Shown: in pieces, positions 180 through 20,323 of the stretch
How positions within the stretch are numbered: position 1 is the first letter of the stretch
Layout of the letters: the number at the start of each line of letters is the position of its first letter
Assembly: GCF_000017845.1 (NCBI RefSeq)
Contig: NC_010547.1
Location: 180,001-212,000 of the forward strand
From: Crocosphaera subtropica ATCC 51142
Lineage (GTDB): Bacteria; Cyanobacteriota; Cyanobacteriia; Cyanobacteriales; Microcystaceae
Reading direction: 5' to 3'
DNA: 32,000 nucleotides
Program-made: the position numbers and the translations under genes
Notes under the pieces: generated by a model
The model's input: only the letters and a program-made list of their open reading frames with translations
What the model was told of the DNA's origin: nothing
Databases searched by the model: none

Positions 180-187
180 GCTAGCGC
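180..187 (+). promoter_or_regulatory. GCTAGCGC box (cassette promoter/operator candidate)
   Basis: tGCTAGCGCaagattaaacgacc; 35 nt to ATG 223. Confidence 0.55.
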
Positions 188-222
188 AAGATTAAACGAC
201 CTTAAAAGATACCAGTGAAAAT

Positions 223-408
223 ATGTGCGAAAACAGAGTCACCCTCAATATTTCTGAACGAGAGTTAGCCACTATACTGGCCTCTTTAGAATTATTCAGA
301 AAGGAACGAGCAAAGGAAGACTTTAGACCATATTCAGAGCAATTCGAGGAAATTGAGCCTCTGACAGTTGAAGAAGTGGATAAGCTTACTGACTATCTGG
401 AAAATTAG
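223..408 (+). CDS. small acidic protein with RELATILASLELF motif (paralogous to the middle of 490-1329)
   Basis: 61-aa ORF with the box at correct spacing and a terminator at 416-445. The segment ERELATILASLELFRKE...EEIEPLTVEEVDKL matches PRELATILVALRLFQR...EETEPLTASEIDEL in the next gene. Confidence 0.6.
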   Translation: MCENRVTLNISERELATILASLELFRKERAKEDFRPYSEQFEEIEPLTVEEVDKLTDYLEN

Positions 409-415
409 AGAATTG

Positions 416-445
416 GAGCTAGGTGTCATCCCAGCTCTTTTTTTT
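416..445 (+). terminator. rho-independent terminator
   Basis: Stem gagct(a)gg/ccagctc followed by an 8-nt T-run. Confidence 0.6.
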
Positions 446-448
446 CAG

Positions 449-456
449 GCTAGCGC
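449..456 (+). promoter_or_regulatory. GCTAGCGC box
   Basis: gGCTAGCGCcagttaaagcgacc; 33 nt to ATG 490. Confidence 0.55.
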
Positions 457-489
457 CAGTTAAAGCGACCTTTATTCGCTTAAAAACTA

Positions 490-1329
490 ATGAGCAATCA
501 AAATAAAGCATGGGATTTATATCTTAAGGGAAACAAGCTCGCAGAAGAACAGAAGATCGAAGAAGCGATCGCAGTCTATAAAGAATCAATTGATCTCTAT
601 CCCCACCATGAAGAAGTTTATAATAACTTAGGGGTTCTTTACCATGACTTAGGCAAACACGAAGATGCAACCGCGTTTTTTGAGCAAGGAATTGCGATCG
701 CCATGAGAAATACCAAGGCTCCCAGTCCTCAGTTTAATCCCAGAGAATTAGCCACGATATTAGTGGCACTCCGATTGTTCCAGAGAACGCCAAGTGTAAA
801 GAAGCAACTATTAGAATATTTCGAGGAAACCGAACCCTTAACTGCGTCTGAGATAGATGAGTTATGTGAACGACTCAACTGTTCATGCTCAAGCACAGAC
901 CTCGCATCCAAAACACTAAATATTAGTGAAAGGCTGACAGCGATCGGGGAAATCGAAGTTTTAATGGCTGAGAGTTACAGAATAAGGACATTGACTCGAA
1001 TTTGGGCTACTTTTCCTGAAATTACCTCAGTCGAATTTGCCGAGATTGAAGAAGGTACTGAGGTGGCACCAGGAACGATTGCTTTGACCGATATTCAGTT
1101 TATAAGCGAAGATTCTGCTACAGAGATTATCAAACGAAATAATCTTGAATTAGTCTCAGATCAATATCGTATAGAAGGGGATTCACTACAATTCTGGCAA
1201 TATCTCCTTTTATCAACATCGCCGACAGAAAAACTTATCGGTAAGCATGACCGTCCCGACGAGCTACCGAATCTTATCGATGTTATCGAACAAGTTTCCG
1301 ATCTGGGGAAACGCTTAGCAATCGACTAG
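490..1329 (+). CDS. TPR-repeat protein with RELATIL-type domain and C-terminal W-x-(Y/F)PEI family domain
   Basis: 279-aa ORF. N-terminus is TPR-like (AIAVYKESIDLYPHHEEVYNNLGVLYHDLGKHEDA). It then has PRELATILVALRLFQ, then RIWATFPEITSVEF...IQFISEDSA, and the tail DRPDELPNLIDVIEQV. Confidence 0.75.
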   Translation: MSNQNKAWDLYLKGNKLAEEQKIEEAIAVYKESIDLYPHHEEVYNNLGVLYHDLGKHEDATAFFEQGIAIAMRNTKAPSPQFNPRELATILVALRLFQRTPSVKKQLLEYFEETEPLTASEIDELCERLNCSCSSTDLASKTLNISERLTAIGEIEVLMAESYRIRTLTRIWATFPEITSVEFAEIEEGTEVAPGTIALTDIQFISEDSATEIIKRNNLELVSDQYRIEGDSLQFWQYLLLSTSPTEKLIGKHDRPDELPNLIDVIEQVSDLGKRLAID

Positions 1330-1360
1330 CGTCAGTAAACTTAGAAAGATTCATTTAACT

Positions 1361-1384
1361 AAGGGCATTATGCCCTTTTTTTTT
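1361..1384 (+). terminator. rho-independent terminator
   Basis: Stem aagggca/tgccctt followed by a 9-nt T-run. Confidence 0.75.
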
Positions 1385-1457
1385 GATGTAGGATGCACCT
1401 CCGACGAGTTACAGCGATTTTGATCAGTTATTTCGACAAATCAAAGAGGGGGAAAGG

Positions 1458-1465
1458 GCTAGCGC
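1458..1465 (+). promoter_or_regulatory. GCTAGCGC box
   Basis: gGCTAGCGCccacctgaaaggg; 35 nt to ATG 1501. Confidence 0.5.
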
Positions 1466-1500
1466 CCACCTGAAAGGGAAATATCAGAGCAAAAAATCAA

Positions 1501-1701
1501 ATGAAGCAGTTTATCATCTTCTTATTGGCCATAGCCGTAGTAGTGACATCTATGGCTCTGTTCAAAGGCTATTTCATTAAAAATTATGGTGACGAGCCAT
1601 CATTTGAGCAGATTTGCTACGTTGGTCTTTTAACTATAGGTGGACTTAGTTTACCAATGGTGGTAATGACGATTATTACAACGCTGTTATCGGCGTTCTA
1701 A
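1501..1701 (+). CDS. small membrane protein (two predicted TM helices)
   Basis: 66-aa ORF with hydrophobic stretches FIIFLLAIAVVVTSMALF and VGLLTIGGLSLPMVVMTIITTLL. Box upstream and terminator downstream. Confidence 0.6.
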   Translation: MKQFIIFLLAIAVVVTSMALFKGYFIKNYGDEPSFEQICYVGLLTIGGLSLPMVVMTIITTLLSAF

Positions 1702-1716
1702 GAGGGAAAAAGACTA

Positions 1717-1750
1717 GGAGGAGATGAGTAATAGTCATCCTCTTTTTTTT
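1717..1750 (+). terminator. rho-independent terminator
   Basis: Stem gaggag-atga/tcatcctc followed by a 9-nt T-run. Confidence 0.6.
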
Positions 1751-1822
1751 GTAAGCGATTGTCACAAAAGATCACCCAGCGTCGCTTAAAATAATATGGA
1801 ATAAAGCGAGGTCGATTCATTA

Positions 1823-2112: not shown

Positions 2113-2433
2113 ATGAAGTTTGAGTGGGATGAAAACAAAGCACAGTCCAACTTAGAGAAACATAAAATTTCCTTTGAGTTAGCAAAAGAACTTTTCAAGG
2201 AACCGACTGTATTGAGCTTCCAAGATAATCGCTTTGAATATGGGGAAATAAGAGAAGTAGCTATAGGAGAGTTATATGGAGTCTGTCTCTATGTTGTGTT
2301 TACCCTCAGAGGAAACATCATCCGAATAATTTCAGCTAGAAAAGCTAGTGTAAAAGAAAGGAAAGCCTATTATGAGTATTTCAAGAGAACAGCAAATCGA
2401 AATTCTGAAGAAAATGAGGGACGAGGAAATTGA
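2113..2433 (+). CDS. brnT: BrnT-family (DUF497) type II toxin
   Basis: FEWDENKAQSNLEKHKISFELAKELF...IIRIISARKASVKERKAY matches the BrnT signature (F-WD..K...N..KH..SF ... RIISAR.A...E...Y). Confidence 0.8.
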   Translation: MKFEWDENKAQSNLEKHKISFELAKELFKEPTVLSFQDNRFEYGEIREVAIGELYGVCLYVVFTLRGNIIRIISARKASVKERKAYYEYFKRTANRNSEENEGRGN

Positions 2434-2644
2434 TTTCTCTGATGCTCCAGAAGCAACAGATGAGCAGTTGGCTCGTCTGGAGGCATTTGTGCCACCTAAG
2501 AAAAAAACAATAACCATTAAATTGGACGAAGATATAATAGATTGGTTCAAGGATGAGCAGCCACAGGGAGGATATCAAACCTTCATCAATGCTGTTCTCA
2601 GAGATTATGTACGGCGCAAAGTCGAAGAAAGACAAATAGAGTAA
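2372..2644 (+). CDS. brnA: BrnA-family (DUF4415-like) antitoxin
   Basis: Lies immediately downstream of and overlapping brnT. Contains IDFSDAPEATDEQLARL and a C-terminal DNA-binding-like segment. The start could instead be ATG 2411. Confidence 0.7.
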   Translation: MSISREQQIEILKKMRDEEIDFSDAPEATDEQLARLEAFVPPKKKTITIKLDEDIIDWFKDEQPQGGYQTFINAVLRDYVRRKVEERQIE

Positions 2645-2698
2645 TACCAAGGTCAAAGTCGGGATCGCACAGAGTCTAGAAGGGCGTTAAAAAATATG

Positions 2699-2706
2699 CC
2701 TAGCGG
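2699..2706 (+). promoter_or_regulatory. degenerate box CCTAGCGG
   Basis: gCCTAGCGGa, the same variant as at 8952; 32 nt to ATG 2739. Confidence 0.35.
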
Positions 2707-2738
2707 ACTATTGAGTGGTTTATAGTAATAGAGAACTT

Positions 2739-3032
2739 ATGAAAATGACCCCAAAACAGCTAGAACTAATCCAACAAAGCCAAAGAGCCGTATCCAACGT
2801 GGAGACAGATCCAGAAGCCCCTCAATCAGAAGAAAAATGTTGGAATATCCCCGTTACTTGGACTTGTTGGGGAATGTACAAAGTCCCAAAATCTCAATGT
2901 TCCACCATCGATGATGCGATCGCCTTTGTCGAAAAAGAACCCTTGCCAGATCAAGGAGAGTACGTGGATGATTCGATGCGAATCGATATGGAGGGATTAT
3001 CAATCCATAACTCATCCGAAGAAGAAATCTAG
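2739..3032 (+). CDS. hypothetical protein
   Basis: ORF-track 2715-3032 trimmed to the first ATG at box-consistent spacing (MKMTPKQLELIQ...). Confidence 0.5.
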   Translation: MKMTPKQLELIQQSQRAVSNVETDPEAPQSEEKCWNIPVTWTCWGMYKVPKSQCSTIDDAIAFVEKEPLPDQGEYVDDSMRIDMEGLSIHNSSEEEI

Positions 3033-3037
3033 GAAAA

Positions 3038-3088
3038 ATCCGCAGCAGTGTCTGTAACTTATAAGCAAAAATAGCTGTTGCTGCGGAT
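3038..3088 (+). repeat. ATCCGCAGCA...TGCTGCGGAT hairpin element, copy 1
   Basis: 10-bp terminal inverted repeats around an AT-rich TTATAAG core. Lies 5 nt after the stop of 2739-3032. Confidence 0.85.
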
Positions 3089-3139: not shown

Positions 3140-3147
3140 GCTAACCC
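3140..3147 (+). promoter_or_regulatory. degenerate box GCTAACCC
   Basis: 6/8 match; 31 nt to ATG 3179. Confidence 0.25.
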
Positions 3148-3178
3148 ATATTGGTAGGAACTAAACCTATCAACAAAG

Positions 3179-3425
3179 ATGCTAATTTACTTCATCGAGT
3201 TAGAGAATAACGGTAAATACCAAGAAGTCCCACTGAACGATTTCATGATGGGGATTTTGAGAGAACGTTATAGCGGTGATCTCGACTCTGGAGTTAGTCT
3301 AAACTCCAGCCCAAAGAGTTCCGTGATAAGCCATTGAAACGTCCCGATGACCCAGAACAAGAGCTGAAGGATTTACTTCGTGATATACGCCGAGCGATCG
3401 ACAAATATAAAAGCTTGTTCTTAGA
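3179..3425 (+). pseudogene. decayed W-x-YPEI family cassette (frameshifted, no stop before terminator)
   Basis: A 52-codon ORF runs 3179-3337 (MLIYFIELENNGKYQEVPLNDF...). The family C-terminal tail KRPDDPEQELKDLLRDIRRAID then continues in another frame from 3334 and runs into the terminator without a stop. Confidence 0.35.
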
Positions 3426-3430
3426 ATATT

Positions 3431-3460
3431 CGCACTGTACTCAGCAGTGCGGGTTTTTTT
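3431..3460 (+). terminator. rho-independent terminator
   Basis: Stem cgcactg/cagtgcg followed by ggttttttt. Overlaps the 3' end of the convergent RNase H gene. Confidence 0.6.
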
Positions 3461-4289: not shown

Positions 4290-4297
4290 GCTAGCGC
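4290..4297 (+). promoter_or_regulatory. GCTAGCGC box
   Basis: tGCTAGCGCaggtaaaagcaacg; 34 nt to ATG 4332, with an aaggag SD in between. Confidence 0.55.
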
Positions 4298-4331
4298 AGG
4301 TAAAAGCAACGTATTTTTTAAGGAGTCACCT

Positions 4332-4943
4332 ATGTCTAGAGAGCGAAAACTTGAGAAAAACACTTTCGGAAACGGGTTGTGGACAGAATACAACTGTTAC
4401 TATTTGTTTCCCTCAACAAAGATGGAACAAGACCCTTATAAAGAGGCAGACTTGTGGTTAACCATCGTTGTAACCGAAGGTAAAGTCGAGGTCAGTGAAC
4501 ATCTACACATCCGGAGAACAGGAGCCTCCACTCGTGAGTCTTATGTTGCGGACTGCCTGACGGTATTGGATGGAAGAAGTGTGAAGGTCATGCCCTACTT
4601 TGAAATAAAAGTGGATACGGCTACTTCCGATGTCTACATCGCTTTCAACAAACAAGCTTTGACTGATGACCTTAAGGGAATCAAGAATAAGAAAAGAAAG
4701 ATATATACGGTATGTGGTAATAAGTGTTTTTGCTTCGATAATAAGCATATTTACGACCAAGACTACAACCTGTTTCGCATTAAGCGATATGGATTCTGGA
4801 TGTCAATTCCCCGAAAAGTGGCGAAGCACCTAGTGCAATTCCATGATTTCAAAGTTTTAGATTGGAAGGGAAAAGAGGATAACCTGATTTATCAGCAGTT
4901 GTTCCATGCGCCGAAACCGAAACTAATAGGAATACTAGACTAA
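4332..4943 (+). CDS. hypothetical protein
   Basis: 203-aa ORF flanked by box, SD and terminator. No family recognised. Confidence 0.6.
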   Translation: MSRERKLEKNTFGNGLWTEYNCYYLFPSTKMEQDPYKEADLWLTIVVTEGKVEVSEHLHIRRTGASTRESYVADCLTVLDGRSVKVMPYFEIKVDTATSDVYIAFNKQALTDDLKGIKNKKRKIYTVCGNKCFCFDNKHIYDQDYNLFRIKRYGFWMSIPRKVAKHLVQFHDFKVLDWKGKEDNLIYQQLFHAPKPKLIGILD

Positions 4944-4955
4944 GAGGAGAGAGAG

Positions 4956-4980
4956 AAAGGCTTTCTATGCCTTTTTTTTT
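4956..4980 (+). terminator. rho-independent terminator
   Basis: Stem aaggc/gcctt followed by a 9-nt T-run. Confidence 0.55.
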
Positions 4981-5035: not shown

Positions 5036-5043
5036 GCTAGCGC
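5036..5043 (+). promoter_or_regulatory. GCTAGCGC box
   Basis: tGCTAGCGCa; 37 nt to ATG 5081. It lies inside ORF-track 4967-5767, whose first 38 codons cover the terminator and the box. Confidence 0.5.
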
Positions 5044-5080
5044 ATTTATGGCATCTGATAACCATTTATCCAAAATAAAT

Positions 5081-5914
5081 ATGGCATTCCAAAATCTTGA
5101 GTCCGTACTAGACACTCTGAAAACACAAGGCGCATCCACTATCGAAATTACCTACTTCGGAGAAGGAGACGACGGAGCGATCGAGCCACCGAGTCTAAAA
5201 ACCTGCACCGCAGGATATGATTCAGAAGCTATCGAAGCGGCCTTGGACTCTGGGCCAGGAGACACTCTCATTGCATTTGTCGAACATATACTCGGCCCCG
5301 GATGGGAAAATGGAACCGGCCTCAGTGGGACGGTCATCTTCGATTTAACTACTGATACGATAACTCACAGCCAAGAAGAAGAGGTGATTCAATGCAATTA
5401 TAACGAAGATACTTACACCCTGAACGGAGACTTACTTAGGAGCAAAACGGACAACTGGGAAGACCGTATTTTAGCTTCTTCGAGTGAGAATGAATCTATG
5501 AGTCAACACCAAAAAGAATACATCTCACAGATCGAAAGCAAACTACGTGAAACCATTACAGAACGCTTCTTGCTTGATTTCTGGGTCCAATATCCAGAAG
5601 TCGACAATATTACATTGGAAAAGACCTGGGGAAAAACCCCCGAAGGCGGATGGACTACATTTATCGAGCTCAAAGACATTGAGTTTGTATCAATTCAAGC
5701 TATGGAGGAATTAAAGAAAAAGCTTGATGGAACCAGTCAATACGAAGCCGACAGTGTATCTGGATGACAAGAATTACTATTTAAGGATGGGAGGATTCCC
5801 GATGAAGAAATTAGCGAGAATTATCTCGATAAGAAATTGAGCCGTGGTGAAAATCCAGAACAAACGCTCAGAGAAATGATGATGGAAATCGCGAAAGTTA
5901 TCGACGGGGAGTAA
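5081..5914 (+). pseudogene. W-x-YPEI family gene interrupted by an in-frame TGA at 5765-5767 (or readthrough)
   Basis: MAFQNLESV...FWVQYPEVDNITLE...IEFVSIQAMEEL...SG, then TGA. The same frame stays open to TAA at 5912-5914 and encodes QELLFKDGRIPDEE...RGENPEQTLREMMMEIAKVIDGE, homologous to the C-termini of 6002-6433 and 7279-7737. The only terminator lies after 5914. Confidence 0.6.
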
Positions 5915-5934
5915 TTTCTACGAAAAGAAGCAAC

Positions 5935-5960
5935 AGAGGCTATATGCCTCTTTTTTTTTT
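5935..5960 (+). terminator. rho-independent terminator
   Basis: Stem agaggc/gcctct followed by a 10-nt T-run abutting the next box. Confidence 0.75.
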
Positions 5961-5962
5961 CT

Positions 5963-5970
5963 GCTAGCGC
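5963..5970 (+). promoter_or_regulatory. GCTAGCGC box
   Basis: tGCTAGCGCaagaaaatgtgacc; 31 nt to ATG 6002. Confidence 0.55.
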
Positions 5971-6001
5971 AAGAAAATGTGACCACTGACGTTTAAACAC
6001 T

Positions 6002-6433
6002 ATGCTTACAGCAGAAACAACTTCCAAGAAACTCGCTTCCATTGAGAAAGTAGAAGAAATCCTAAAAAGAACTGAAACAAAGCGGTTCCTTTTGGGTATT
6101 TGGATTGAATATCCCGAAATCAAAAGTCTCACCTTCGAGGACACCTACGAATACGATGATAAGGGAAGTTATTATCGATATACCTTCATCAACCAAATCG
6201 AGTTTATCAGTCAAGAAGCCAAGTCCGCATTACACGAGAGGCTAGACCCCGATAGTATCTTTGACGAGGAACCCGAAGACTGGAAAGAGATGCTCTTCGA
6301 GGGCATTCAGCCAAGTGTTGACCCAGAAAGTATGCTAGAAACCTTTGATCGTCCCGAAGATCCTCAGAAGGAACTTGATGATCTAATCGCTGAAATCAGC
6401 CAAGTAATCGCAACCGCAGGAGGGATAGTATGA
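6002..6433 (+). CDS. W-x-YPEI family protein
   Basis: RFLLGIWIEYPEIKSLTFED...IEFISQEAKSAL...WKEMLFEGIQP...DRPEDPQKELDDLIAEISQVI. Confidence 0.7.
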   Translation: MLTAETTSKKLASIEKVEEILKRTETKRFLLGIWIEYPEIKSLTFEDTYEYDDKGSYYRYTFINQIEFISQEAKSALHERLDPDSIFDEEPEDWKEMLFEGIQPSVDPESMLETFDRPEDPQKELDDLIAEISQVIATAGGIV

Positions 6434-7170
6434 AGGGACTCAGTGTAACTGCTATTGGTGCGCGTCCCCTTGATGAATGCCTGAATATCTTTGAAACCCT
6501 CAAAGAATCGCTTGGATTAGACTTCTTAGAATTAGCCGTGGGGAGTCGCTGTGACTTGTCGAAGATTCCCAAAGAAATTCCTTTGGTGATTCACCATCGG
6601 TGTTTATTCGATGGGCTCTACAAATTGCCATTCTCCTTAGCCCAACCTGAAACCTGGGAGGAGTATCGACAGCGATTACGCGATCGCAATGTCAAGATGA
6701 TATCAATTCATCCTCCGATGCGAAAGGAAATCACCTTCGATGACCTTAAACGTAATAGAGACCAATTTGAATCACTTCTAGGTGTTCCAGTGTGCCTTGA
6801 GGTCATGCCAAATGATGCTTACTGGTTATCTGAGGACGATTTCAGAACAACTCCTGATAGAGTTATTGATATTCCCATTCTACTCGATATTTCCCATCTG
6901 AACATCTGGGCTAAAGGACGCAGCGCCTTAGTCCAAGAGTGGACGGAAAGACTATTACCCCAGGCGATCACTGTGCATTTGTCGCACAACAACGGTCGAA
7001 GAGATTCCCACGACTTAATCCCGTCAGATATCTGGTTTAATCAACATATTGAAAAGTGGGAGACCCAAGGGTTGATTCTAACGTATGAATCCTTACCAGA
7101 AAGCTTTGCAAAGTTTGAACGGGATGATAAGCAGCGAATGAAGCAAAAACTAAAACACCGCGTTAGTTAG
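6430..7170 (+). CDS. xylose isomerase-like / AP endonuclease family 2-like TIM-barrel protein
   Basis: ATGA overlap with the upstream stop. Spaced metal-ligand-like residues are LELAV, SIHPP, CLEVMP, LLDISHLNIW and VHLSHNNGRRDSHDLIP. Confidence 0.5.
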   Translation: MKGLSVTAIGARPLDECLNIFETLKESLGLDFLELAVGSRCDLSKIPKEIPLVIHHRCLFDGLYKLPFSLAQPETWEEYRQRLRDRNVKMISIHPPMRKEITFDDLKRNRDQFESLLGVPVCLEVMPNDAYWLSEDDFRTTPDRVIDIPILLDISHLNIWAKGRSALVQEWTERLLPQAITVHLSHNNGRRDSHDLIPSDIWFNQHIEKWETQGLILTYESLPESFAKFERDDKQRMKQKLKHRVS

Positions 7171-13658: not shown

Positions 13659-13708
13659 GTCCGCAGCAGTAGCTGTTTTCTATAAGAATTATCGACGTTG
13701 CTGCGGAT
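13659..13708 (+). repeat. hairpin element, copy 5 (left arm GTCCGCAGCA)
   Basis: gtccgcagcaGTAGCTGTTTTCTATAAGAATTATCGACGTtgctgcggat. The left half is identical to copy 7. Confidence 0.8.
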
Positions 13709-13841
13709 GCCTCAAAGCCTGATATAGTCAAGGATTAAGTCTTGTCTAACATTACAGTATCTTAGCCGAAGGGGCAGGGAAGATAGGTATCGCTGCAAGT
13801 TCGCTGCCTAATTGCTATCTACAACTGTAGAACCTCTAAAC

Positions 13842-14542: not shown

Positions 14543-14806
14543 TTAAACATCTTGTATGGCTTTTTCAATTGATTCCCGAATAAACTTTTGATAGCCGATT
14601 CCGCGCTCACCAGAAGCTTTCTTGACTGCCTCGAGTAAGTCTTTTGAGAGCCTTAAGCTGATGGTTGCATCTTTGGGAGCAAACTCAAAAGTAGTCGGTG
14701 TAAAGTTTTTCTGGAAATTCTCTGGAGTGAGATACTCTGTTAAGTCTTCTGCAAGCAACTTTTCGACATCTTGGTCATTGGTCATTTTGGGGAGAGATTT
14801 GCTCAT
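14543..14806 (-). CDS. brnA: BrnA-like antitoxin
   Basis: Overlaps the 3' end of the upstream brnT. C-terminus ISLRLSKDLLEAVKKASGERGIGYQKFIRESIEKA is RHH/BrnA-like. Confidence 0.7.
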   Translation of the reverse strand: MSKSLPKMTNDQDVEKLLAEDLTEYLTPENFQKNFTPTTFEFAPKDATISLRLSKDLLEAVKKASGERGIGYQKFIRESIEKAIQDV

Positions 14807-15074
14807 ATTGTTGTGCCTCCTTCTCGTGCATATAACGAGCTGATATTGGGCGAATAAGATTGTTGCGTAGGGTAAAAGCTACAAACAAGGGTCTCCCAGA
14901 TGGCAATCGACCTACTGCCAAGAATCGGTCTTCGTCTTGGGAGTGTTTGATATCGGGAGCTACATATATCTGTGTCTGAAAGAATCCCTCTATCTCCTCT
15001 AGGGTAACACCGTGCTTCTGGCACTTGGTCTCATTTCCTTCCTCCCAATCAAACCCTTCAACAGCAATGCTCAT
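14775..15074 (-). CDS. brnT: BrnT-family (DUF497) toxin
   Basis: FDWEEGNETKCQKHGVTLEEIEGFF...LFVAFTLRNNLIRPISARYMHEKEAQQYE. Confidence 0.8.
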   Translation of the reverse strand: MSIAVEGFDWEEGNETKCQKHGVTLEEIEGFFQTQIYVAPDIKHSQDEDRFLAVGRLPSGRPLFVAFTLRNNLIRPISARYMHEKEAQQYEQISPQNDQ

Positions 15075-15123: not shown

Positions 15124-15514
15124 TTACTGAATTTTCCACATTATCTCATGACCTGCCCAGAGGGGAACGATTCCAGAGTTATTGAGTGAGATTTCATCAG
15201 GAATACGCTAGGTCGATTTGACCAGGGTTATCTGTTCGGTATTGCGTGGGAGTCGGTAAAAATCTAGCCCATAGAAGCTGGCAAAAGCTTCAAGCTTATC
15301 GAGAGCATCAGCACGCTCAAACGCTTCTACATATAACGCGCTTGGCGTGTAGAGCCGAATAGCATCCTGCACAGCCACAGGAACTTTCTTTATTATTGCG
15401 AGTATGGGGAGCGCTATCAGTACCCAGAAAAAACTTAGGATTACCTGATGTAGTTGCTTGGACAATAGCCTGACGATGCTCTTCCCCTTTCAATGCGGTT
15501 TTTCCATGCTTGAA
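15124..15514 (-). pseudogene. pyrC: 3' fragment of a class II dihydroorotase gene with one frameshift and one in-frame stop
   Basis: Three pieces are colinear with the E. coli-type PyrC C-terminus: [31 protein letters not shown] (frame a), [35 protein letters not shown] (frame b), then TAG at 15208-15210 followed by IPDEISLNNSGIVPLWAGHEIMWKIQ. Confidence 0.75.
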
Positions 15515-15851
15515 GTTTGGCACGAAGGTCTTCCTGACCTGGTTTGGGGGGCATCGAGGCTATCTTGGCAAATCGTTCCCGATTGCGTTCTTCCCAATAT
15601 TGACGAATTTCTGCTGCTGTTTGCAGACATTCTTGGTATTCTGCTTCAACTTCAGTACGATGAGTTTCAATGTAGGCTAAAGCTGAACAAATTTGCTTAT
15701 TGTTGAGACCGAGTTTTTCACGGATTAACTTTGGTGGATACTGAGCTTTCAGGTAATCCATTACATCATAAAGAGTGATGCGTGTACCTGTAATCGTTAG
15801 TCCACGCTCAGTACGAATAATTGAGGATTGCTCATTCAATGCTGAAATCAT
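15441..15851 (-). CDS. DUF433-domain protein (antitoxin-like), 3' end running into the pyrC remnant
   Basis: The ATG is preceded by ggag. [22 protein letters not shown] is the DUF433 signature. The last 25 or so codons overlap pyrC-derived DNA in another frame. Confidence 0.65.
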
Positions 15852-16017
15852 AGCTGTTTCTCCGCCCAACTTAATTTTATATTATCTCAAAATTAGCTAA
15901 ACGCCGAGAAGCCCCTCGCTGTACAAAGTCAGCGTCGGGTAGTTTACTTTTTGTACAGTCTTCTGTGTTTTGTTCTTCCAATGCTAAAATTGGAAAGATG
16001 TCGCAGGAGTCAGAGTA

Positions 16018-17154
16018 ATGGCAGTAACAGGAAGAAAAACACAACGTCGAAGCAGGACAAAGAAATCAGAGGAGCAATTAGAGAAAGAGCAAACTACGAC
16101 CCAAGACGCGATCGATGTAACCGCTCAAAGTGATGTAGCGACATCGCCTGATTCCGCTGATTCCAAGCAAGAAAACGATAAAGAAACGACAAAATCAACA
16201 GATACAGTAGCAAGGGTTGAGACACTTAAACCAGATCAAGTAGATTCTATAGAAGACCGAGAAGAACAAATAGCAAAACGGGCAGAATTAGAGAATATCG
16301 TCATAGAACACTCTCAGAGTTTTACTATCATTGGAAAAGCTTTGCGAGAAATCCAAGAAAAGAAACTTCATCAAATTGAAGATCCTAATAAGAGATGGGA
16401 TGTTTATGTCGACGAAACATTCGGTATTGTAAAATCTAGAGCCTATCAACTTATTGCAGGGACTGTTCTTTATGAAGTTCTCGAAGATAACTTAAAAGGA
16501 GACTATTCACTCCCCAAATCCGATACTCAACTTCGTCCTTTATACTCCCTTGTCAAAGGATGGAGAAAGGCAACAGCGAAAAACGATGTAGAAGAAAAAG
16601 AAAGGATAGAGCAGTTAATTGTTAAGCATTATAAAGACTCAATAGATGTAGCTAATCAAGAAGGAAAAGAACTAACAGAGAGTATTGTTAGAGAGGTGGT
16701 TCGCGCGTCCCAACAAAAAGAAGTTCAAGCCAGAAGCTTTTCAACTGAAGATATAGGGGCGGTGGTCGAGATAACTAAAGTAGAAGGGAATGATAACCTA
16801 CGTGGCCAGAAAGGGAATTACGGAATTATTACAGGCGTAAACAACTTCAGTGTGTCTATTGAAACAGCTATAGGAGAATACGACACCATCCCTCAACAAT
16901 GCGTAAGAAAAATGCCCGCAGATAAAGTATATCAACAAGAAACCAACGAAAAGATTAAGTCTCATATATCGAGACTTAAAACCATATACGATGCTATTCA
17001 GAGCAGTGAAGACAAAGACAAAAGACTCGCTAACTATATTGTGGGAATGACTGCTTCCTATCAAGGAACCAAGAAAACAGAATTAAACCATAAGCTACTC
17101 AAAACTATCGAGGACTATTTTGAGATCAAAGATGATCCGCAGCAACCTCAATAA
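16018..17154 (+). CDS. hypothetical DNA-binding-like protein (possible ParB/KorB-like HTH or replication-related)
   Basis: 378 aa with an acidic, low-complexity N-terminus. FTIIGKALREIQEKKLHQ...WDVYVDETFGIVKSRAYQLIAG resembles the HTH of plasmid partition/regulator proteins. This is a weak call. Confidence 0.5.
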   Translation: MAVTGRKTQRRSRTKKSEEQLEKEQTTTQDAIDVTAQSDVATSPDSADSKQENDKETTKSTDTVARVETLKPDQVDSIEDREEQIAKRAELENIVIEHSQSFTIIGKALREIQEKKLHQIEDPNKRWDVYVDETFGIVKSRAYQLIAGTVLYEVLEDNLKGDYSLPKSDTQLRPLYSLVKGWRKATAKNDVEEKERIEQLIVKHYKDSIDVANQEGKELTESIVREVVRASQQKEVQARSFSTEDIGAVVEITKVEGNDNLRGQKGNYGIITGVNNFSVSIETAIGEYDTIPQQCVRKMPADKVYQQETNEKIKSHISRLKTIYDAIQSSEDKDKRLANYIVGMTASYQGTKKTELNHKLLKTIEDYFEIKDDPQQPQ

Positions 17155-17184
17155 TTTATAACGAAAATAGTCGTTGCTGCGGAT
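17135..17184 (+). repeat. hairpin element, copy 6 (left arm encodes the last codons of 16018-17154)
   Basis: atccgcagcaACCTCAATAATTTATAACGAAAATAGTCGTtgctgcggat. The TAA stop at 17152-17154 lies inside the element. Confidence 0.85.
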
Positions 17185-17242: not shown

Positions 17243-17250
17243 GCTAGCGC
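17243..17250 (+). promoter_or_regulatory. GCTAGCGC box (first of a tandem pair)
   Basis: cGCTAGCGCggaaaagaggattatct precedes the second box at 17268. Confidence 0.4.
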
Positions 17251-17267
17251 GGAAAAGAGGATTATCT

Positions 17268-17275
17268 GCTAGCGC
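17268..17275 (+). promoter_or_regulatory. GCTAGCGC box heading an ORF-less unit
   Basis: tGCTAGCGCaggtatgaactgaaac. Only ATG-AAC-TGA is present before the terminator. Confidence 0.5.
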
Positions 17276-17346
17276 AGGTATGAACTGAAACTTCCCCCCA
17301 CCTCGTTTGTATAAAAGGTAGTCTTGTTGGATTGCCTTTTTTTTTT
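17276..17346 (+). ncRNA. candidate small RNA (about 70 nt)
   Basis: Box, C-rich stretch cttccccccacc, hairpin aaggtagtc/ggattgcctt, then an 11-nt T-run. No ORF. Confidence 0.3.
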
Positions 17347-17348
17347 AG

Positions 17349-17398
17349 ATCCGCAGCAGTAGCTGTTTTCTATAAGAAATATAGGTGTTGCTGCGGGT
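17349..17398 (+). repeat. hairpin element, copy 7
   Basis: atccgcagcaGTAGCTGTTTTCTATAAGAAATATAGGTGTtgctgcgggt, directly after the T-run. Confidence 0.8.
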
Positions 17399-17563
17399 GA
17401 TTCAAAGACTCGTCACTAGGGGGTTACAAGGCGATAGGCGGTGGCTTTACCTCGACCTTCTTTTCGCAGGATATTCTGAGAGATCGAGGTGCTTCTGGTT
17501 CCAAGCCATGTCCGTATTGTAGTCGTATTATAGCCGAAAGGATAGCGCAAAAGAGGGTTAGCT

Positions 17564-17571
17564 GCTAGCGC
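17564..17571 (+). promoter_or_regulatory. GCTAGCGC box heading an ORF-less unit
   Basis: gatagcgcaaaagagggttagctGCTAGCGCagggtttgactgaaagc. The 35 nt upstream repeat the tandem arrangement at 17243-17275. Confidence 0.5.
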
Positions 17572-17660
17572 AGGGTTTGACTGAAAGCCCCAATTGGCTT
17601 TGCAGAACTGCGTTCATAGCTGACCTCGATAGGAACCTCTTTATGAGGTTTCTATTTTTT
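17572..17660 (+). ncRNA. candidate small RNA (about 90 nt)
   Basis: No ORF. Internal hairpin aaagcc-ccaatt-ggcttt, and terminal hairpin aggaacctc/gaggtttct plus T-run. Confidence 0.3.
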
Positions 17661-17744
17661 CTATAAACTCGACACGTAAACTAACCCTAGTTCTAGCTAC
17701 GGTTTTTTAAATAATTAGCTAGAACTAGAGTAGTAACGAGATAG

Positions 17745-17752
17745 GCTAGCGC
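17745..17752 (+). promoter_or_regulatory. GCTAGCGC box
   Basis: gGCTAGCGCcagtatggttgaactgagc; 36 nt to ATG 17789. Confidence 0.55.
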
Positions 17753-17788
17753 CAGTATGGTTGAACTGAGCATAGCGAGGAACCAACC

Positions 17789-18334
17789 ATGCAATCATTA
17801 GAAATTTTACTCGATTTATTAGCCATCATTTTTGTTTTATACGCCACCTACGGGCATAGAAACGGAGATAATTTAGTGTTAGCGGGCGATATCAGTAGCC
17901 TTGAATTGATGACACAGATCGCCTTTGGGTCAGGTCAAACTCAAGAAGAAGAGGACGATTTGCCCCCTTGGGATGTCGATGAATTAATCGATAGTCTCAC
18001 GCAGGTTGAGCCAGAGCCTTCTACGAATACTCTTGATGAAACCACTGAGGGTACACAGAGTCCTGAACTCAAAGTGCCCGAAGAGGGTCTGATTCCCTTC
18101 GATGTCGATGAACCCGATATCCCCAGTCGCAACGAGGTATTCAACGACTACCCTGATTTCGATGTTACTCAGATTACCGCAAAGAAAGCCTGGAAAGCAG
18201 CCAAGGCGCTAGGATTACCTTACAAGAATCCAGACAAAAGCCGCATCAAGGTAACTGTTCTAAGACAAAACATCGAAGCGTATCTTAGAGAAAATCCTAG
18301 TCAATTTTCCGATGTCCTCCCTTTCGTTGGATAA
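17789..18334 (+). CDS. membrane-anchored, highly acidic protein
   Basis: N-terminal hydrophobic helix LEILLDLLAIIFVLYATY, followed by D/E/P-rich repeats (PPWDVDELID, IPFDVDEPDIP). Confidence 0.6.
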   Translation: MQSLEILLDLLAIIFVLYATYGHRNGDNLVLAGDISSLELMTQIAFGSGQTQEEEDDLPPWDVDELIDSLTQVEPEPSTNTLDETTEGTQSPELKVPEEGLIPFDVDEPDIPSRNEVFNDYPDFDVTQITAKKAWKAAKALGLPYKNPDKSRIKVTVLRQNIEAYLRENPSQFSDVLPFVG

Positions 18335-18384
18335 TCAAGGAGGGGGCTGACTCCCCTCTCTGCTCACCTTACCCCATAGTAATT

Positions 18385-18684
18385 ATGAAAACTCAAACCG
18401 AACCACAACAACGAACCTACCAAGCCAATAGCCTGATCATCAACACGGTAGAAACCAACGATAATCAACTGGAAGTTTATCTCTGTTACTTGGACGGGTT
18501 TTCCATTCGCCAAATAAACAATATTAATGGCCTAGGTGCTTTACTCGGATTGGAGGGGGAACCAGAAAACTCCTTTGAGCCGTTCATCGTTCCACAGCAC
18601 CGAATTAGAGATATCATCGACACTTTCTTTGTCTATTCAAAGCAGGTAGTAGAGTTAGTCAACAGAGATTTAGACCAAGATTAA
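18385..18684 (+). CDS. hypothetical protein
   Basis: 99-aa ORF in the same transcription unit as 17789-18334. No terminator lies between them. Confidence 0.55.
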   Translation: MKTQTEPQQRTYQANSLIINTVETNDNQLEVYLCYLDGFSIRQINNINGLGALLGLEGEPENSFEPFIVPQHRIRDIIDTFFVYSKQVVELVNRDLDQD

Positions 18685-18699
18685 GTCAGGAGAAAACTC

Positions 18700-18900
18700 A
18701 TGGAACCAAAACCAAACAGAGAAAAAGCCATACTTTGGCTATCTGACGATGACTTAGAACTTATCGGCATTGACCCTGCCTCTATCTCAGATGAATTATT
18801 CGAAGCGATTGCAGAAGAACTCAAGGAATTTATCAACGAAGGCTTTCAACACGCCCTGATTCAAAGTGTTGAGTCAGCAAAAGTCAACCAGGAATCATGA
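18700..18900 (+). CDS. small highly acidic protein
   Basis: 66 aa, with about 16 D/E versus 5 K/R by my count. An aggag SD lies 8 nt upstream and the terminator follows. Confidence 0.55.
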   Translation: MEPKPNREKAILWLSDDDLELIGIDPASISDELFEAIAEELKEFINEGFQHALIQSVESAKVNQES

Positions 18901-18909
18901 ACTATTGTC

Positions 18910-18932
18910 GAGGCTCCGTGCCTCTTTTTTTT
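18910..18932 (+). terminator. rho-independent terminator
   Basis: Stem gaggc/gcctc followed by an 8-nt T-run. Confidence 0.7.
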
Positions 18933-18960
18933 GTTCTATAGGGAACTTCTTTATGTCTGT

Positions 18961-18968
18961 GCTAGCGC
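18961..18968 (+). promoter_or_regulatory. GCTAGCGC box
   Basis: tGCTAGCGCacggtagcc; 36 nt to ATG 19005. Confidence 0.55.
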
Positions 18969-19004
18969 ACGGTAGCCATGAACATAATCTCGAAAGGAGA
19001 CTTC

Positions 19005-19535
19005 ATGTTATTCGCTGTGTTAACACAAAAGAACTGGGCAAAAGCCAGAATTCGCTCGATTACTAACTATGATACTGTGACTAAAACCCTTCCTAAATAT
19101 TCGTTTGACGATGTGGATATCGCTGTGATCGGAAAAGTGTCGATGAATGAAGATGAGTGGCTTGGTCTTGAGGTAGGACTCGGCACTATATATCGATATT
19201 GTCAAAAAGGGCTACCTGCGGAGGCTTACGACGAAGAGGGGAACATTACCTTACTATACGAGCCACCATCTCGGTCAGCCGATATTGGAGACTTGATTCA
19301 ATTTGAAGATGGTCGAGTGTACCGAGTTGAACACGATGGCTATAAACTACTCCCCCATCAGCCAATTGTCCGATTATCCGAGAGTTTAATCGATAGACGA
19401 TTAGTAGCTAATTTCCGCAGTATACCGAATTGGCATACTCATCGGGTATTTGAACATCAAGTCCTGCAAAGAAGTGATTTAGTGGTTGAAAAATGTGTGG
19501 ACATCGCACAGCACATTTACTACCGAATCCGATAA
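19005..19535 (+). CDS. hypothetical protein
   Basis: ORF-track 18978 start replaced by the in-frame ATG with an aaaggag SD 7 nt upstream and box-consistent spacing. Confidence 0.6.
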   Translation: MLFAVLTQKNWAKARIRSITNYDTVTKTLPKYSFDDVDIAVIGKVSMNEDEWLGLEVGLGTIYRYCQKGLPAEAYDEEGNITLLYEPPSRSADIGDLIQFEDGRVYRVEHDGYKLLPHQPIVRLSESLIDRRLVANFRSIPNWHTHRVFEHQVLQRSDLVVEKCVDIAQHIYYRIR

Positions 19536-19551
19536 GGTATCATCGCCGAAA

Positions 19552-19583
19552 AGAGAGACCGTTTAGGTTTCTCTTTTTCTTTT
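19552..19583 (+). terminator. rho-independent terminator
   Basis: Stem agagagacc/ggtttctct followed by a T-rich run. Confidence 0.65.
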
Positions 19584-19609
19584 GAACCTGTCGTAAATTG
19601 CAAAGCATC

Positions 19610-19634
19610 GTAGGGTGGGCATGGCCCACCCTAC
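19610..19634. repeat. perfect 11-bp-stem hairpin GTAGGGTGGGC-atg-GCCCACCCTAC
   Basis: Perfect palindrome. A related copy, aGGGTGGGtatgtCCCACCtt, lies at 11327-11347. Confidence 0.7.
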
Positions 19635-19743
19635 AGGTAGCACTCACTCAGCGTATTCGACGCCTTTTACCTTGCCATTTTCGGCGCCGACCCTGCCTCC
19701 TTGATGAAGCAAGCAGTGTTTGGAGTGGAAAAGCTGACGACAA

Positions 19744-19856
19744 TGCACGATGTATGCACGGGTAATGCACACAAAAGCACGATAAAAACGCTTCTTCACT
19801 AGCGTGAAAGCACAAAAACGTGCGCTTATAGTGCTGAAACGTGACTATTAAGTGCA
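19744..19856. repeat. phased GCAC/GTGC iteron-like array (period 10-11 bp)
   Basis: (T/A)GCAC at 19744, 19755, 19766 and 19776. AGCAC at 19809, then GTGC/GTGA at 19820, 19831, 19841 and 19852. Confidence 0.65.
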
Positions 19857-19887
19857 TCTTTTGGTTAAGTAAAAATACTCAAAAAGC

Positions 19888-20052
19888 ATGAAAAATATTT
19901 TATGTCTTGTCAGGCTACACGATTGGAAAATAATCCGTGGGAATACGCCAGAGTTAAAAGACGCCTACATTTGCAGAGAGTGCCAAAGATGTGGAAGATT
20001 CGAGGTCAAATCCTACGCATCAAACTTCAAATGGCAAACACTAATGAAATAA
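19888..20052 (+). CDS. small zinc-ribbon-like protein (54 aa, below ORF-track cutoff)
   Basis: MKNILCLVRLHDW...AYICRECQRCGRFEVKSY...LMK. The stop is at 20050-20052, just before the terminator at 20059-20090. This fits the cassette layout better than the overlapping 85-aa ORF 19902-20159. Confidence 0.35.
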   Translation: MKNILCLVRLHDWKIIRGNTPELKDAYICRECQRCGRFEVKSYASNFKWQTLMK

Positions 20053-20058
20053 GCATCA

Positions 20059-20090
20059 ACAGGGATTGTCTATTAAGAATCCTGTTTTTT
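20059..20090 (+). terminator. rho-independent terminator
   Basis: Stem cag(g)gatt/aatcctg followed by a 6-nt T-run abutting the next box. Confidence 0.7.
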
Positions 20091-20098
20091 GCTAGCGC
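20091..20098 (+). promoter_or_regulatory. GCTAGCGC box
   Basis: tGCTAGCGCaagggataaag; 29 nt to ATG 20128. Confidence 0.5.
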
Positions 20099-20127
20099 AA
20101 GGGATAAAGAAGTGTTTAAGAAAAACC

Positions 20128-20292
20128 ATGAAAGTCTACACCGCTTACATAGTCACTGAGGAAGGAGTCAAAGAAGATGATCATTATGTTTACCAGAACA
20201 AGGAAAAAGCTAAAGAGGCAGCCCAAGCCTGGGGTTTACTAGAAAAGGCAAAGCATTGCGGAATAAAAGAAAAGCGTTATATCCCGAATTGA
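20128..20292 (+). CDS. hypothetical small protein (54 aa)
   Basis: ORF-track 20089 start lies inside the terminator and box, so the ORF was trimmed to MKVYTAYIVTEEG... Confidence 0.45.
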   Translation: MKVYTAYIVTEEGVKEDDHYVYQNKEKAKEAAQAWGLLEKAKHCGIKEKRYIPN

Positions 20293-20323
20293 GGGATTTA
20301 TCTTTGAATCCCTTTCTTTTTTT
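20293..20323 (+). terminator. rho-independent terminator overlapping the 3' end of the convergent polymerase gene
   Basis: Stem gggatt/aatccc followed by tttcttttttt. Confidence 0.55.

Follow-up and report, generated by a model that had tools for sequence, protein, structure and literature searches.

An array of small, co-oriented genes in Crocosphaera subtropica ATCC 51142 is headed by repeated copies of one octamer, GCTAGCGC (hereafter the box), and adjoins the gene for an RNA polymerase homologue of 1198 aa, cce_4975. The array lies in a 32,000-nt stretch of DNA (contig NC_010547.1, positions 180,001 to 212,000), which is referred to as the window and numbered from its first base. We consider it highly probable that the box signals the start of transcription, and we lean, with modest confidence, towards the full statement that it is a promoter read by the element's own cce_4975 polymerase. 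With at least 24 boxes about 34 bases ahead of small genes, and a polymerase gene adjoining them, it is probable that the element transcribes its cargo genes itself. The window belongs to a 429,701-bp (429.7-kb) replicon, presumably the linear chromosome of C. subtropica (Cyanothece) ATCC 51142, and, to judge from its gene content, is a plasmid-like conjugative or mobilisable element: its right third is a plasmid-type backbone, and its left two thirds hold small genes on the + strand.

In a scan of both strands the box was counted 19 times, always on the + strand, against an expectation of 0.47 copies for both strands together (sd 0.73, maximum 3; 100 shuffles). An earlier note on this DNA had given the same count and an expectation of about 0.5, along with three degenerate copies, which are indeed present as GCCTAGCGG at 2698 and 8951 and as GCTAACCC at 3140. 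Every GCTAGC hexamer in the window (19 of 19) sits within a box. Non-coding DNA makes up 27.7% of positions 1-20297, as calculated after correction of start codons, and contains all 19 exact boxes (P ~2.5e-11). No minus-strand gene has a box ahead of it, and none of the boxes falls within 20.3-32 kb; the claim that the boxes are all intergenic, lie on the + strand and never precede minus-strand genes or the mobilisation and type IV secretion system (T4SS) operons therefore stands. The density of boxes here is 9.4 per 10 kb, and five more to the left of the window edge, on contig L098, bring the total to at least 24.

The boxes keep a narrow distance to start codons. From the end of the box to the ATG, the gaps of 14 exact boxes are 35, 33, 35, 34, 40, 31, 38, 28, 30, 34, 42, 36, 36 and 29 nt (units 1, 2, 3, 6, 7, 8, 9, 10, 11, 13, 14, 19, 20 and 21, respectively), and each of these ATGs opens an open reading frame (ORF) of at least 54 aa. 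For the degenerate boxes, the gaps are 32 nt from 2698 to the ATG at 2739 (unit 4), 35 nt from 8951 to 8995 (unit 12) and 31 nt from 3140 to 3179 (unit 5), so that the 28-42 nt spacing proposed earlier holds in 17 units, 14 with exact and 3 with degenerate boxes. Five ORF starts in the program-made track (4967, 7231, 8941, 18978 and 20089) run through a box and had been called read-through artefacts; in-frame ATGs downstream, at 5084, 7279, 8995, 19005 and 20128, restore the usual spacing. The five exact boxes with no ORF at this distance belong to three non-coding units, one tandem duplicate and one long leader.

Terminator-like hairpin/T-run sites number 44 in 1-20 kb against 16.5 expected (2.7-fold enriched), while the 20-32 kb backbone is not enriched (13 versus 10.3 expected), and a stricter fold-based scan places a compact hairpin followed by at least 6-7 T after almost every unit, in agreement with the statement that most units end in this way. 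The T-run abuts the next box at 5963, 7786, 9608 and 20091, the same four places that had been pointed out before. One promoter, one gene and one terminator is thus the usual layout, as had been suggested, but not a universal one: unit 8 is bicistronic, unit 19 is tricistronic, three units are non-coding, and some end in a 46-nt palindrome instead of a hairpin/T-run.

To describe the box itself, 39 non-redundant copies from the window and from the contigs L098, L002, L081 and L001 were aligned. Upstream, the information content stays below 0.2 bits from -30 to -2, with T at -1 in 21 of the 39. Outside the 8-mer the sole strong position is +19, counted from the first base of the box and hence 11 nt past it, which is a purine in 37 of 39 copies (binomial estimate ~6e-9 against 52% purines); the next two positions, +20 and +21, are A-rich, and with the exception of +19 the information content outside the box is below 0.5 bits everywhere. 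The second semi-conserved box that the earlier note had described (GACC or TGAACTGA) is weak over the 39 copies, in which only the purine at +19 and the A-rich bases after it prove solid outside the 8-mer. No TAnnnT and no -35-like hexamer stands at a fixed offset from the box, unlike bacterial sigma-70-type promoters; past the 19 boxes only 7 TAnnnT were counted, at scattered positions, and a sigma-70 consensus scan gave 43 hits against 44.5 expected, none of them in register with the boxes, just as the earlier failure to find a -35/-10 pair had indicated. Boxes can begin 0-11 nt past the preceding T-run. Given this and the lack of conservation upstream, the complete signal fits within ~22 bp.

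Several familiar meanings of a short repeated sequence were considered for the box and rejected. Polar 8-mers of the Chi or KOPS type neither avoid coding sequence nor track start codons. A restriction or methylation target of the NheI type is at odds with the asymmetric extension and the purely intergenic placement of the box. HIP1 differs in sequence and occurs throughout on both strands, and a -35 element would have a -10 element after it, which is absent, and would not lie so near to the ATG. A literature search for GCTAGCGC as a motif returned nothing relevant, its matches being unrelated methods papers in which the sequence is most likely part of cloning primers.

Boxes also head units that contain no ORF. 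Such units span 11139-11220, 17268-17346 and 17564-17664 in the window and, on the reverse strand of the related contig L002, 3522-3590 and 4175-4250; in all five, the box is followed by 45-90 ORF-less nt and then by a strong hairpin/T-run. A transcription start signal fits this arrangement, whereas a translation signal does not. These units of ~60-90 nt are candidate small RNAs, which would be made from the same promoter class; Rfam and tRNA scans of the short non-coding units gave no match.

The gene adjoining the array, cce_4975 (20298-23894, minus strand), encodes a protein 100% identical to cce_4975 of ATCC 51142 and has no box of its own. Searches of the protein against Pfam, NCBIfam and PDB sequences gave no match; in PHROG it matches family 34895 (4e-19, no function assigned) and family 4291, 'RNA-dependent RNA polymerase' (4.7e-5). 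More than 200 cyanobacterial homologues were found. In an alignment of 41 of these, DFDGD at 450-454, corresponding to the Mg-binding DxDGD of the beta'-type barrel, is invariant, as are F220, K221 and G222 in an N-terminal beta-rich domain, in which R223 and K224 are at least 90% conserved. By sequence, this FKGRK segment (FKGRKG when extended by one residue) resembles the beta motif GDKxxxRHGxKG, in keeping with a second, beta-type barrel. The AlphaFold (AF2) model of cce_4975 has a mean pLDDT of 86. Within the PDB, Foldseek matched it best to maize RDR2 (E 1.4e-12) and Neurospora QDE-1 (E 6e-12), then to Thermus-phage P23-45-type RNA polymerases (RNAPs; 8f72/8f5m, E ~1e-8) and, more weakly, to bacterial beta'. 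The Foldseek probability is 1.00 for RDR2, QDE-1 and the P23-45-type RNAP; the RDR2 and QDE-1 alignments run over ~900-1000 columns at 12-13% identity, with TM-scores of 0.33-0.45. Among the viral models of BFVD, phage RdRP-like and crAss-like proteins match. The catalytic context HLQADFDGDRLA parallels LLQFDNDGDKAL of YonO, with the common signature LQxDxDGD[KR]. The model and the catalytic motifs place cce_4975 among the two-barrel RNA polymerases, as a single-polypeptide homologue of the QDE-1/RDR2/YonO kind; by analogy with YonO, it would be DNA-dependent.

The family sits on cyanobacterial plasmids and chromosomes. It was found on 99 cyanobacterial plasmids of PLSDB, 43 of them predicted to be conjugative, and every hit listed, from 40 of these 99 records, is annotated as 'hypothetical protein'. 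A tblastn search of 50,697 INPHARED phage records gave no hit, nor did IMG/VR. No window ORF matches a T7-type RNA polymerase (Pfam RNA_pol family). The earlier interpretation, that the array resembles the regulon of a phage single-subunit RNAP, is accordingly supported in part: a 1198-aa single-polypeptide RNAP homologue is present, but it is two-barrel and not T7-like, and its family is missing, at the sequence level, from these phage collections. The observation on which that interpretation was built is confirmed. Four homologues (P0019, P0060, P0099 and P0070) are annotated as fusions with primase-like (PF12965, PF13154), RNase H (PF00075) or N6-methylase (PF02384) domains; these fusions may either be real, hinting at replication-linked roles, or reflect read-through in gene calling. 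Literature on cce_4975 itself yielded nothing relevant, and 'YonO-like' cyanobacterial proteins are mentioned only in passing, as uncharacterised (PMC2919709, PMC5467207, PMC7598289).

The search for the same box in related elements, suggested earlier, was successful close to home. Over an overlap of 11.3 kb, contig L098 agrees with the window at 100% identity, and its 9.5-kb left extension carries the five further boxes (at 1712, 2934, 4709, 5113 and 9404), all on the + strand and each 29-36 nt ahead of a start codon. The array therefore runs past the left edge of the window, and the left boundary of the element lies beyond L098 1-9511. In L002, from Cyanothece sp. BG0011, the polymerase is 97% identical and the backbone ~90% identical, and only some cassettes are common to the two elements; its 11 boxes all have the same orientation relative to the polymerase gene, and several head cassettes without a homologue in the window. 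L081, a 36.5-kb plasmid-like contig, has the same synteny of relaxase, actin-like partition protein (ALP) and polymerase, the last being 66% identical; it bears 4 boxes and none in the opposite orientation, 3 of the 4 sit 36-85 nt ahead of ATGs, and here, too, the box heads non-homologous cassettes. Where orthologous units occur, in L002 and L001, the box is preserved in 8 of 8 positions while the flanks are ~50-65% identical. By comparison, the 8-mer occurs at only 0.12 per 10 kb in the 1.37 Mb of DNA that surrounds more distant polymerase homologues (at most 48% identical). Near-identity DNA matches of 1-12 kb were absent from PLSDB and INPHARED; of two metagenome scans for close relatives, the first found none and the second only short contigs, and IMG/VR contained none.

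Taken together, the compact arrangement of box, short leader and terminator, the lack of sigma-70 elements in register and the polymerase homologue alongside make a regulon of a non-host polymerase the leading explanation. We infer the promoter role of the box, the position of the start site and the reading of the box by cce_4975; the link between cce_4975 and the box rests on adjacency, on co-occurrence in four related elements and on the exclusion of alternatives, and the identity of the reader is the weakest step. A number of observations weigh against it. Hairpin/T-run terminators are a classic signal of host polymerase. Box and polymerase co-occur in only four related elements, and as these share the whole backbone, co-occurrence cannot separate cce_4975 from other backbone proteins, one of which could be the recognition factor (candidates are encoded at 16018-17154, 24573-25109 and 25131-25553). 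A search for analogous motifs around distant homologues, based on strand-biased 8-mers and upstream-enriched 7-mers, recovered the box in the window, L098 and L002 but only HIP1, iterons and tandem repeats around the distant polymerases; with no comparable promoter array there, polymerase and promoter could not be seen to co-vary. Of the solved structures, those nearest to cce_4975 belong to RNA-dependent polymerases, and hhalign of the 41-sequence profile against full-length YonO was not significant (probability 0.2%, E 0.29). Modelled separately, the C-terminal 469 aa (pLDDT 88) have no fold match in the PDB, and hence no DNA-binding or specificity domain was identified. Finally, no start-site data for ATCC 51142 were found in the literature.

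Alternatively, the box might be a promoter or activator site for the host's multisubunit RNAP, acting through an alternative host sigma factor or an unrecognised specificity protein encoded by the element, with cce_4975 engaged in, for example, priming or RNA-templated synthesis. We regard this as unlikely, though it keeps an appreciable share of our belief: the units do close with canonical bacterial intrinsic terminators, there is no direct tie between cce_4975 and the box, several proteins of the backbone that have no detectable family could bind DNA, and the few family members seemingly fused to primase-like or RNase H domains hint at non-transcriptional roles. It fits poorly, however, with a box that is GC-rich and asymmetric, lacks a -10 or -35 partner at any fixed offset, lies just 28-42 nt from the ATG with nothing needed upstream and is rare in the 1.37 Mb of other cyanobacterial DNA; moreover, no sigma-70, extracytoplasmic function (ECF) sigma, helix-turn-helix (HTH) or classical regulator domain was found in any window ORF. 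That the box acts on RNA, as a processing or cleavage site, translation enhancer or regulator site in the 5'-untranslated region (5'-UTR) of longer transcripts, would account for its tight distance to the start codon and could supply another translation signal where one might be needed, a clear Shine-Dalgarno sequence being present in only 4 of 14 units. We judge it improbable, as boxes stand immediately past strong hairpin/T-run terminators, as three ORF-less, terminator-closed units are headed by boxes too, and as neither a conserved pairing partner or structure, nor an Rfam match, nor upstream promoters for long transcripts were found.

More improbable still is that the box, together with the preceding terminator or palindrome, marks cassette boundaries for recombination, like integron attC sites or the promoter-stem-loop modules of T4. 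The cassettes of the window and L002 do form a mosaic with boxes and palindromes persisting at the boundaries, and they all point one way, as in integrons; but the window has no integrase or recombinase besides an unrelated IS4 transposase, 8 bp is too short for a site-specific recombination site, and the fixed spacing to the ATG points to a role in expression. Shuffling through homologous exchange between repeated promoter/terminator modules could be a side effect under the main reading. Integron cassettes also lack promoters, whereas those described here carry a promoter-like box of their own, and no integrase domain was found. We give equally little credence to the idea that the boxes are one-strand priming sites at which cce_4975, as a primase, begins complementary or lagging-strand synthesis, for instance after conjugative entry. 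Boxes on one strand at an average distance of ~1 kb, the frequency of the family on conjugative cyanobacterial plasmids, the lack of a recognisable classical Rep or primase gene in the window and the crystallisation of the structural relative QDE-1 with DNA templates (according to PDB titles) would all agree with it, yet priming sites need neither a 28-42 nt distance to start codons, nor intergenic placement, nor a terminator for each gene.

If the box is indeed read by cce_4975, the following scheme would apply. Host sigma-70 polymerase would read the backbone, including cce_4975, and the product, alone or with a helper, would recognise a compact promoter of at most ~22 bp with GCTAGCGC at its core. 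Transcription would start at the purine ~11 nt past the box and yield transcripts with short leaders, which would stop at the hairpin/T-run of the unit or at a 46-nt palindrome; three of them would be small non-coding RNAs, and most would carry a single gene. In this way the element would hold two promoter classes, a host-type one for the backbone and the polymerase gene and at least 24 own-polymerase promoters for the cargo cassettes, a putatively fast-evolving and shuffled set. Consistent with this division, the backbone and the polymerase gene contain no boxes, and sigma-70-like hexamers are found in the divergent promoter region of the backbone (26845-26950).

The closest working analogue is the system of the yeast killer plasmids pGKL1/2, in which the 6-nt upstream conserved sequence (UCS) ATNTGA lies 20-40 nt before the ATG with nothing needed upstream (PMC6211774). 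There, transcripts start at a purine a median of 11 nt past the motif, are mostly monocistronic and end at stem-loop intrinsic terminators (PMC6211774). Both systems are extrachromosomal and have their own reduced two-barrel polymerase (Orf6/Orf7 in yeast) and a box before nearly every ORF; here the box precedes the ATG by 28-42 nt, the purine stands 11 nt past the box in 37 of 39 cases, and hairpins follow. The yeast system, however, is eukaryotic and cytoplasmic, with an AT-rich motif and a poxvirus-related beta-beta' (Rpb2::Rpb1) fusion plus a small subunit, and is believed to work with a helicase and a capping enzyme, neither of which was seen among the domains in the window. The present element has a bacterial host, a GC-rich box and a single chain of the RdRP/YonO-like clade, whose best matches are of the RdRP type and not poxviral. 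The resemblance, though close in numbers, is one of convergence or analogy, not of family membership.

Among bacterial systems, the DNA-dependent polymerase YonO of the Bacillus subtilis prophage SPbeta transcribes late genes of SPbeta which the host enzyme does not (PMC5467207). Like cce_4975, it is a single-polypeptide two-barrel enzyme encoded by a mobile element and bears the LQxDxDGD[KR] signature, but it is shorter (839 versus 1198 aa) and serves one long operon of late genes, for which a single start was mapped and the promoter sequence left undefined, whereas cce_4975 is part of a plasmid-like element with 24 or more putative promoters. The two have only the short catalytic signature in common, and as their hhalign similarity is not significant, cce_4975 would fall outside the YonO family in the strict sense. 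For the non-virion RNAP gp64 of phage P23-45, a conserved GC-rich motif lies upstream of mapped starts, seven of which bear it (PMC10770324). This enzyme is also a small two-barrel single-chain RNAP, and its fold matches the cce_4975 model (E ~1e-8); it differs in being a lytic phage enzyme of ~600 aa, with no sequence similarity and no architecture of cassettes and terminators. T7-like regulons share the compact promoter (~20 bp), the many copies in one orientation, the hairpin/U-run terminators and the independence from host sigma, but T7-type enzymes have an unrelated right-hand, Pol A-like fold, and no such protein is encoded in the window. QDE-1 and RDR2, the best structural matches, have the same DxDGD two-barrel active site, yet they are silencing enzymes that use RNA or single-stranded DNA templates and do not recognise promoters.

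The individual units, all on the + strand, are arranged as follows. Unit 1 (180-445) has its box at 180-187, an ORF for 61 aa at 223-408 and a hairpin at 416-437 with T8; 11 nt past this hairpin begins the box (449-456) of unit 2 (449-1384), with the ORF of a TPR protein (490-1329) and a hairpin at 1363-1375 with T9. Unit 3 (1458-1750; box 1458-1465) encodes a 66-aa membrane peptide (1501-1701) and closes with a hairpin at 1718-1742 and T8. The degenerate box of unit 4 (2698-3086) spans 2698-2706 and is followed by an ORF at 2739-3032 and a 46-nt palindrome at 3040-3086, while that of unit 5 (3140-3459), the weakest, spans 3140-3147 and precedes an ORF at 3179-3337 and a hairpin at 3430-3452 with T7. 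In unit 6 (4290-4980; box 4290-4297), the ORF at 4332-4943 has an AAGGAG ribosome-binding site, and a hairpin lies at 4945-4972 with T8. Unit 7 (5036-5960; box 5036-5043) encodes a DUF6878-like protein (5084-5767) ahead of a hairpin at 5936-5950 with T10. The box of the bicistronic unit 8 (5963-7200; box 5963-5970) is at most 3 nt from that T-run, and the ORFs at 6002-6433 and 6430-7170 are closed by a hairpin at 7178-7194 with a T-run. Unit 9 (7233-7785) comprises a box at 7233-7240, an ORF at 7279-7737 and a hairpin at 7749-7772, whose T-run reaches to 7785; directly after it comes the box (7786-7793) of unit 10 (7786-8396), with an ORF at 7822-8301 and a palindrome at 8351-8396.

Unit 11 (8475-8916; box 8475-8482) encodes a DUF488 protein (8513-8878) and ends in a hairpin at 8884-8909 with T7; its orthologue in L002 retains the box in 8 of 8 positions while the flanks have diverged. 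Unit 12 (8951-9314) has a degenerate box at 8951-8959, an ORF at 8995-9204 and a palindrome at 9269-9314. Units 13 (9326-9607) and 14 (9608-10289) are contiguous, the former with its box at 9326-9333, an ORF at 9368-9562 and a hairpin at 9585-9600 with T7, the latter with its box at 9608-9615, an ORF at 9658-10254 and a hairpin at 10263-10282 with T7. In the non-coding unit 15 (11139-11268; fold z -3.2), the box at 11139-11146 is followed by ~60 ORF-less nt, a hairpin at 11184-11208 with T11 and a palindrome at 11223-11268. Unit 16 (11376-11906; box 11376-11383) contains a 6-codon GTG ORF at 11421-11441 behind AAAGGAGG and then an ORF at 11523-11906; no clear terminator was found in it. Unit 17 (17243-17396), also non-coding, has tandem boxes at 17243-17250 and 17268-17275, a hairpin at 17317-17336 with T10 and a palindrome at 17351-17396, and the non-coding unit 18 (17564-17664; fold z -3.8) has a box at 17564-17571 and a hairpin at 17628-17656 with a T-run; these two are paralogous, box plus leader being 83% identical. 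The tricistronic unit 19 (17745-18932; box 17745-17752) carries ORFs at 17789-18334, 18385-18684 and 18700-18900 and a hairpin at 18910-18924 with T8. Unit 20 (18961-19583; box 18961-18968) has an ORF at 19005-19535 with an AAAGGAG ribosome-binding site and a hairpin at ~19553-19573 with a T-run. In unit 21 (20091-20322), the box at 20091-20098 and the ORF at 20128-20292 are followed by a hairpin at 20293-20312 with a T-run; since this hairpin overlaps the stop codon of cce_4975, unit 21 and the polymerase gene are convergent. A further terminator at 131-154 (+) closes a unit that starts left of the window, with its box at L098 9404, corresponding to window position -107.

The cassette proteins fall into small paralogous families (blastp E 5e-8 to 3e-13), such as 223-408 with 490-1329, and 5084-5767 with 6002-6433 and 7279-7737; a 'W..YPE[IV]' domain is common to three adjacent units. 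These families suggest that cassettes duplicated and diverged in place.

A second repeat family is a 46-nt near-perfect palindrome, CCGCAGCA-N30-TGCTGCGG, with the centre CTATTTT..TATAAG..AAATAG. Besides the five copies given with units 4, 10, 12, 15 and 17 (3040-3086, 8351-8396, 9269-9314, 11223-11268 and 17351-17396), the window has copies at 17137-17182, at the 3' end of a gene that has no box (16018-17154), at 24233-24278, between convergent backbone genes outside the box region, and at 13661-13706, behind a hairpin/T-run at 13627-13645 and adjoining the IS4 insertion; others lie in L098 (3607, 3778, 4997 and 6947), L002 (5 copies) and L081 (2 copies). The palindrome always stands at the 3' end of a gene or just past a hairpin/T-run, in either orientation, and folds strongly (z -3 to -6) with no T-run, some copies falling outside the box region. 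It may be a terminator, an RNA-stabilising hairpin or a protein-binding site, and it lacks the RYYYAAC/GTTRRRY cores of attC sites. The module of terminator and palindrome at 13626-13716 is 82-90% identical to 17313-17406 and looks like the 3'-end remnant of a unit, displaced or duplicated by the IS4 insertion.

Insertions without boxes break up the array, namely BrnT/BrnA, HicA/HicB, an RNase H-like gene, an IS4 transposase and, together with a DUF433 protein, a second BrnT. The toxin-antitoxin genes among these (with DUF433 nearby) lie at 2113-2644 (+), 10312-11062 (-), 14775-15074 (-) and 15441-15869 (-), and the IS4-family DDE transposase at 12219-13418 (-); the block from 11.9 to 16 kb is wholly minus-strand and box-free. 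The box-less gene at 16018-17154 encodes 378 aa, is highly conserved (96% identical in L002) and has no detected family. Upstream of it (15870-16017) are an inverted repeat, GCCCCTCGCTGTACAAAGTCAGCGTCGGGT (~-15 kcal/mol), and TTGTACA..TGTACAG; the repeat may serve as an operator or be origin-like. Upstream of the polymerase gene, here as in L081, lies a small ORF in divergent orientation (23943-24203). In the Microcystis-type contigs L083 (9365-9910) and L085 (2317-2778), whose polymerase is 48% identical, a bAvd/23S-rRNA-IVP four-helix-bundle gene lies directly upstream of the polymerase on the same strand. L085 also has at least 6 tandem 22-bp iterons, GTCTCCCGTAAGTCCGGTAATC, at 11631-11760 beside a 442-aa gene, together probably the replication origin and Rep of a Microcystis plasmid; no such iterons or Rep were recognised in the window. 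The left extension on L098 (1-9511) encodes a clamp-loader-like AAA+ pair (DNA_pol3_delta2/delta_C), TerD, a YAcAr/SLOG protein and an HATPase-like protein of 551 aa; the clamp-loader-like, TerD and SLOG-type proteins are among those whose units are headed by a box.

The backbone comprises a NikA-like protein (26959-27255), a MobA/VirD2 relaxase (27228-28292), the ALP (25540-26739, minus strand) and T4SS-like membrane proteins of the sort usual in transfer regions. The ALP operon and nikA-mobA diverge from an intergenic region (26740-26958) that has a GTCGA...TCGAC inverted repeat and, on either strand, sigma-70-like hexamers; it is likely to be the origin of transfer (oriT) together with the backbone promoter region. 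The cassettes sit on the side of nikA-mobA opposite to its direction of transcription. In the leading regions of plasmids, small, co-oriented, fast-evolving genes lie beside oriT and relaxase, with toxin-antitoxin genes interspersed (PMC11541004); the array shares with them the adjoining relaxase, the uniform orientation, the rapid turnover of cassettes and the interspersed toxin-antitoxin genes. The Frpo/ssi elements are long hairpins that mimic -35/-10 for host RNAP, whereas the box is an 8-mer with no such structure and no flanking complementary arm, and the 46-nt palindromes lie at 3' ends and not upstream of genes.

It is a speculative and rather doubtful extension that the two-barrel polymerase and the 8-bp promoter form a self-contained, host-independent system, which would express small RNAs and a shuffled set of cassettes for establishment or anti-defence from the leading region of a conjugative element upon entry into a new cell, possibly straight from the incoming single strand, given the QDE-1-like fold. 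If true, this would be an alternative, based on a polymerase, to single-strand promoters such as Frpo, and would give the yeast killer-plasmid system a counterpart in bacteria.

Cyanobacterial 'YonO-like' two-barrel polymerases have figured in sequence surveys since ~2003-2010, with no assigned function and no Pfam or NCBIfam model. In the literature searched we found no description of the function or promoter of the cce_4975 family and no promoter consensus for YonO. The present locus places a multi-copy candidate promoter of at most 22 bp beside a candidate enzyme, and so makes promoter recognition by a minimal one-chain relative of RNAP testable with one protein and a short template. If cce_4975 reads the box, bacterial plasmids can run a two-barrel transcription system of their own, and its regulon can consist of many single-gene cassettes instead of one late operon, an arrangement that would converge closely on the yeast killer plasmids and might provide an orthogonal, T7-like expression tool native to cyanobacteria.

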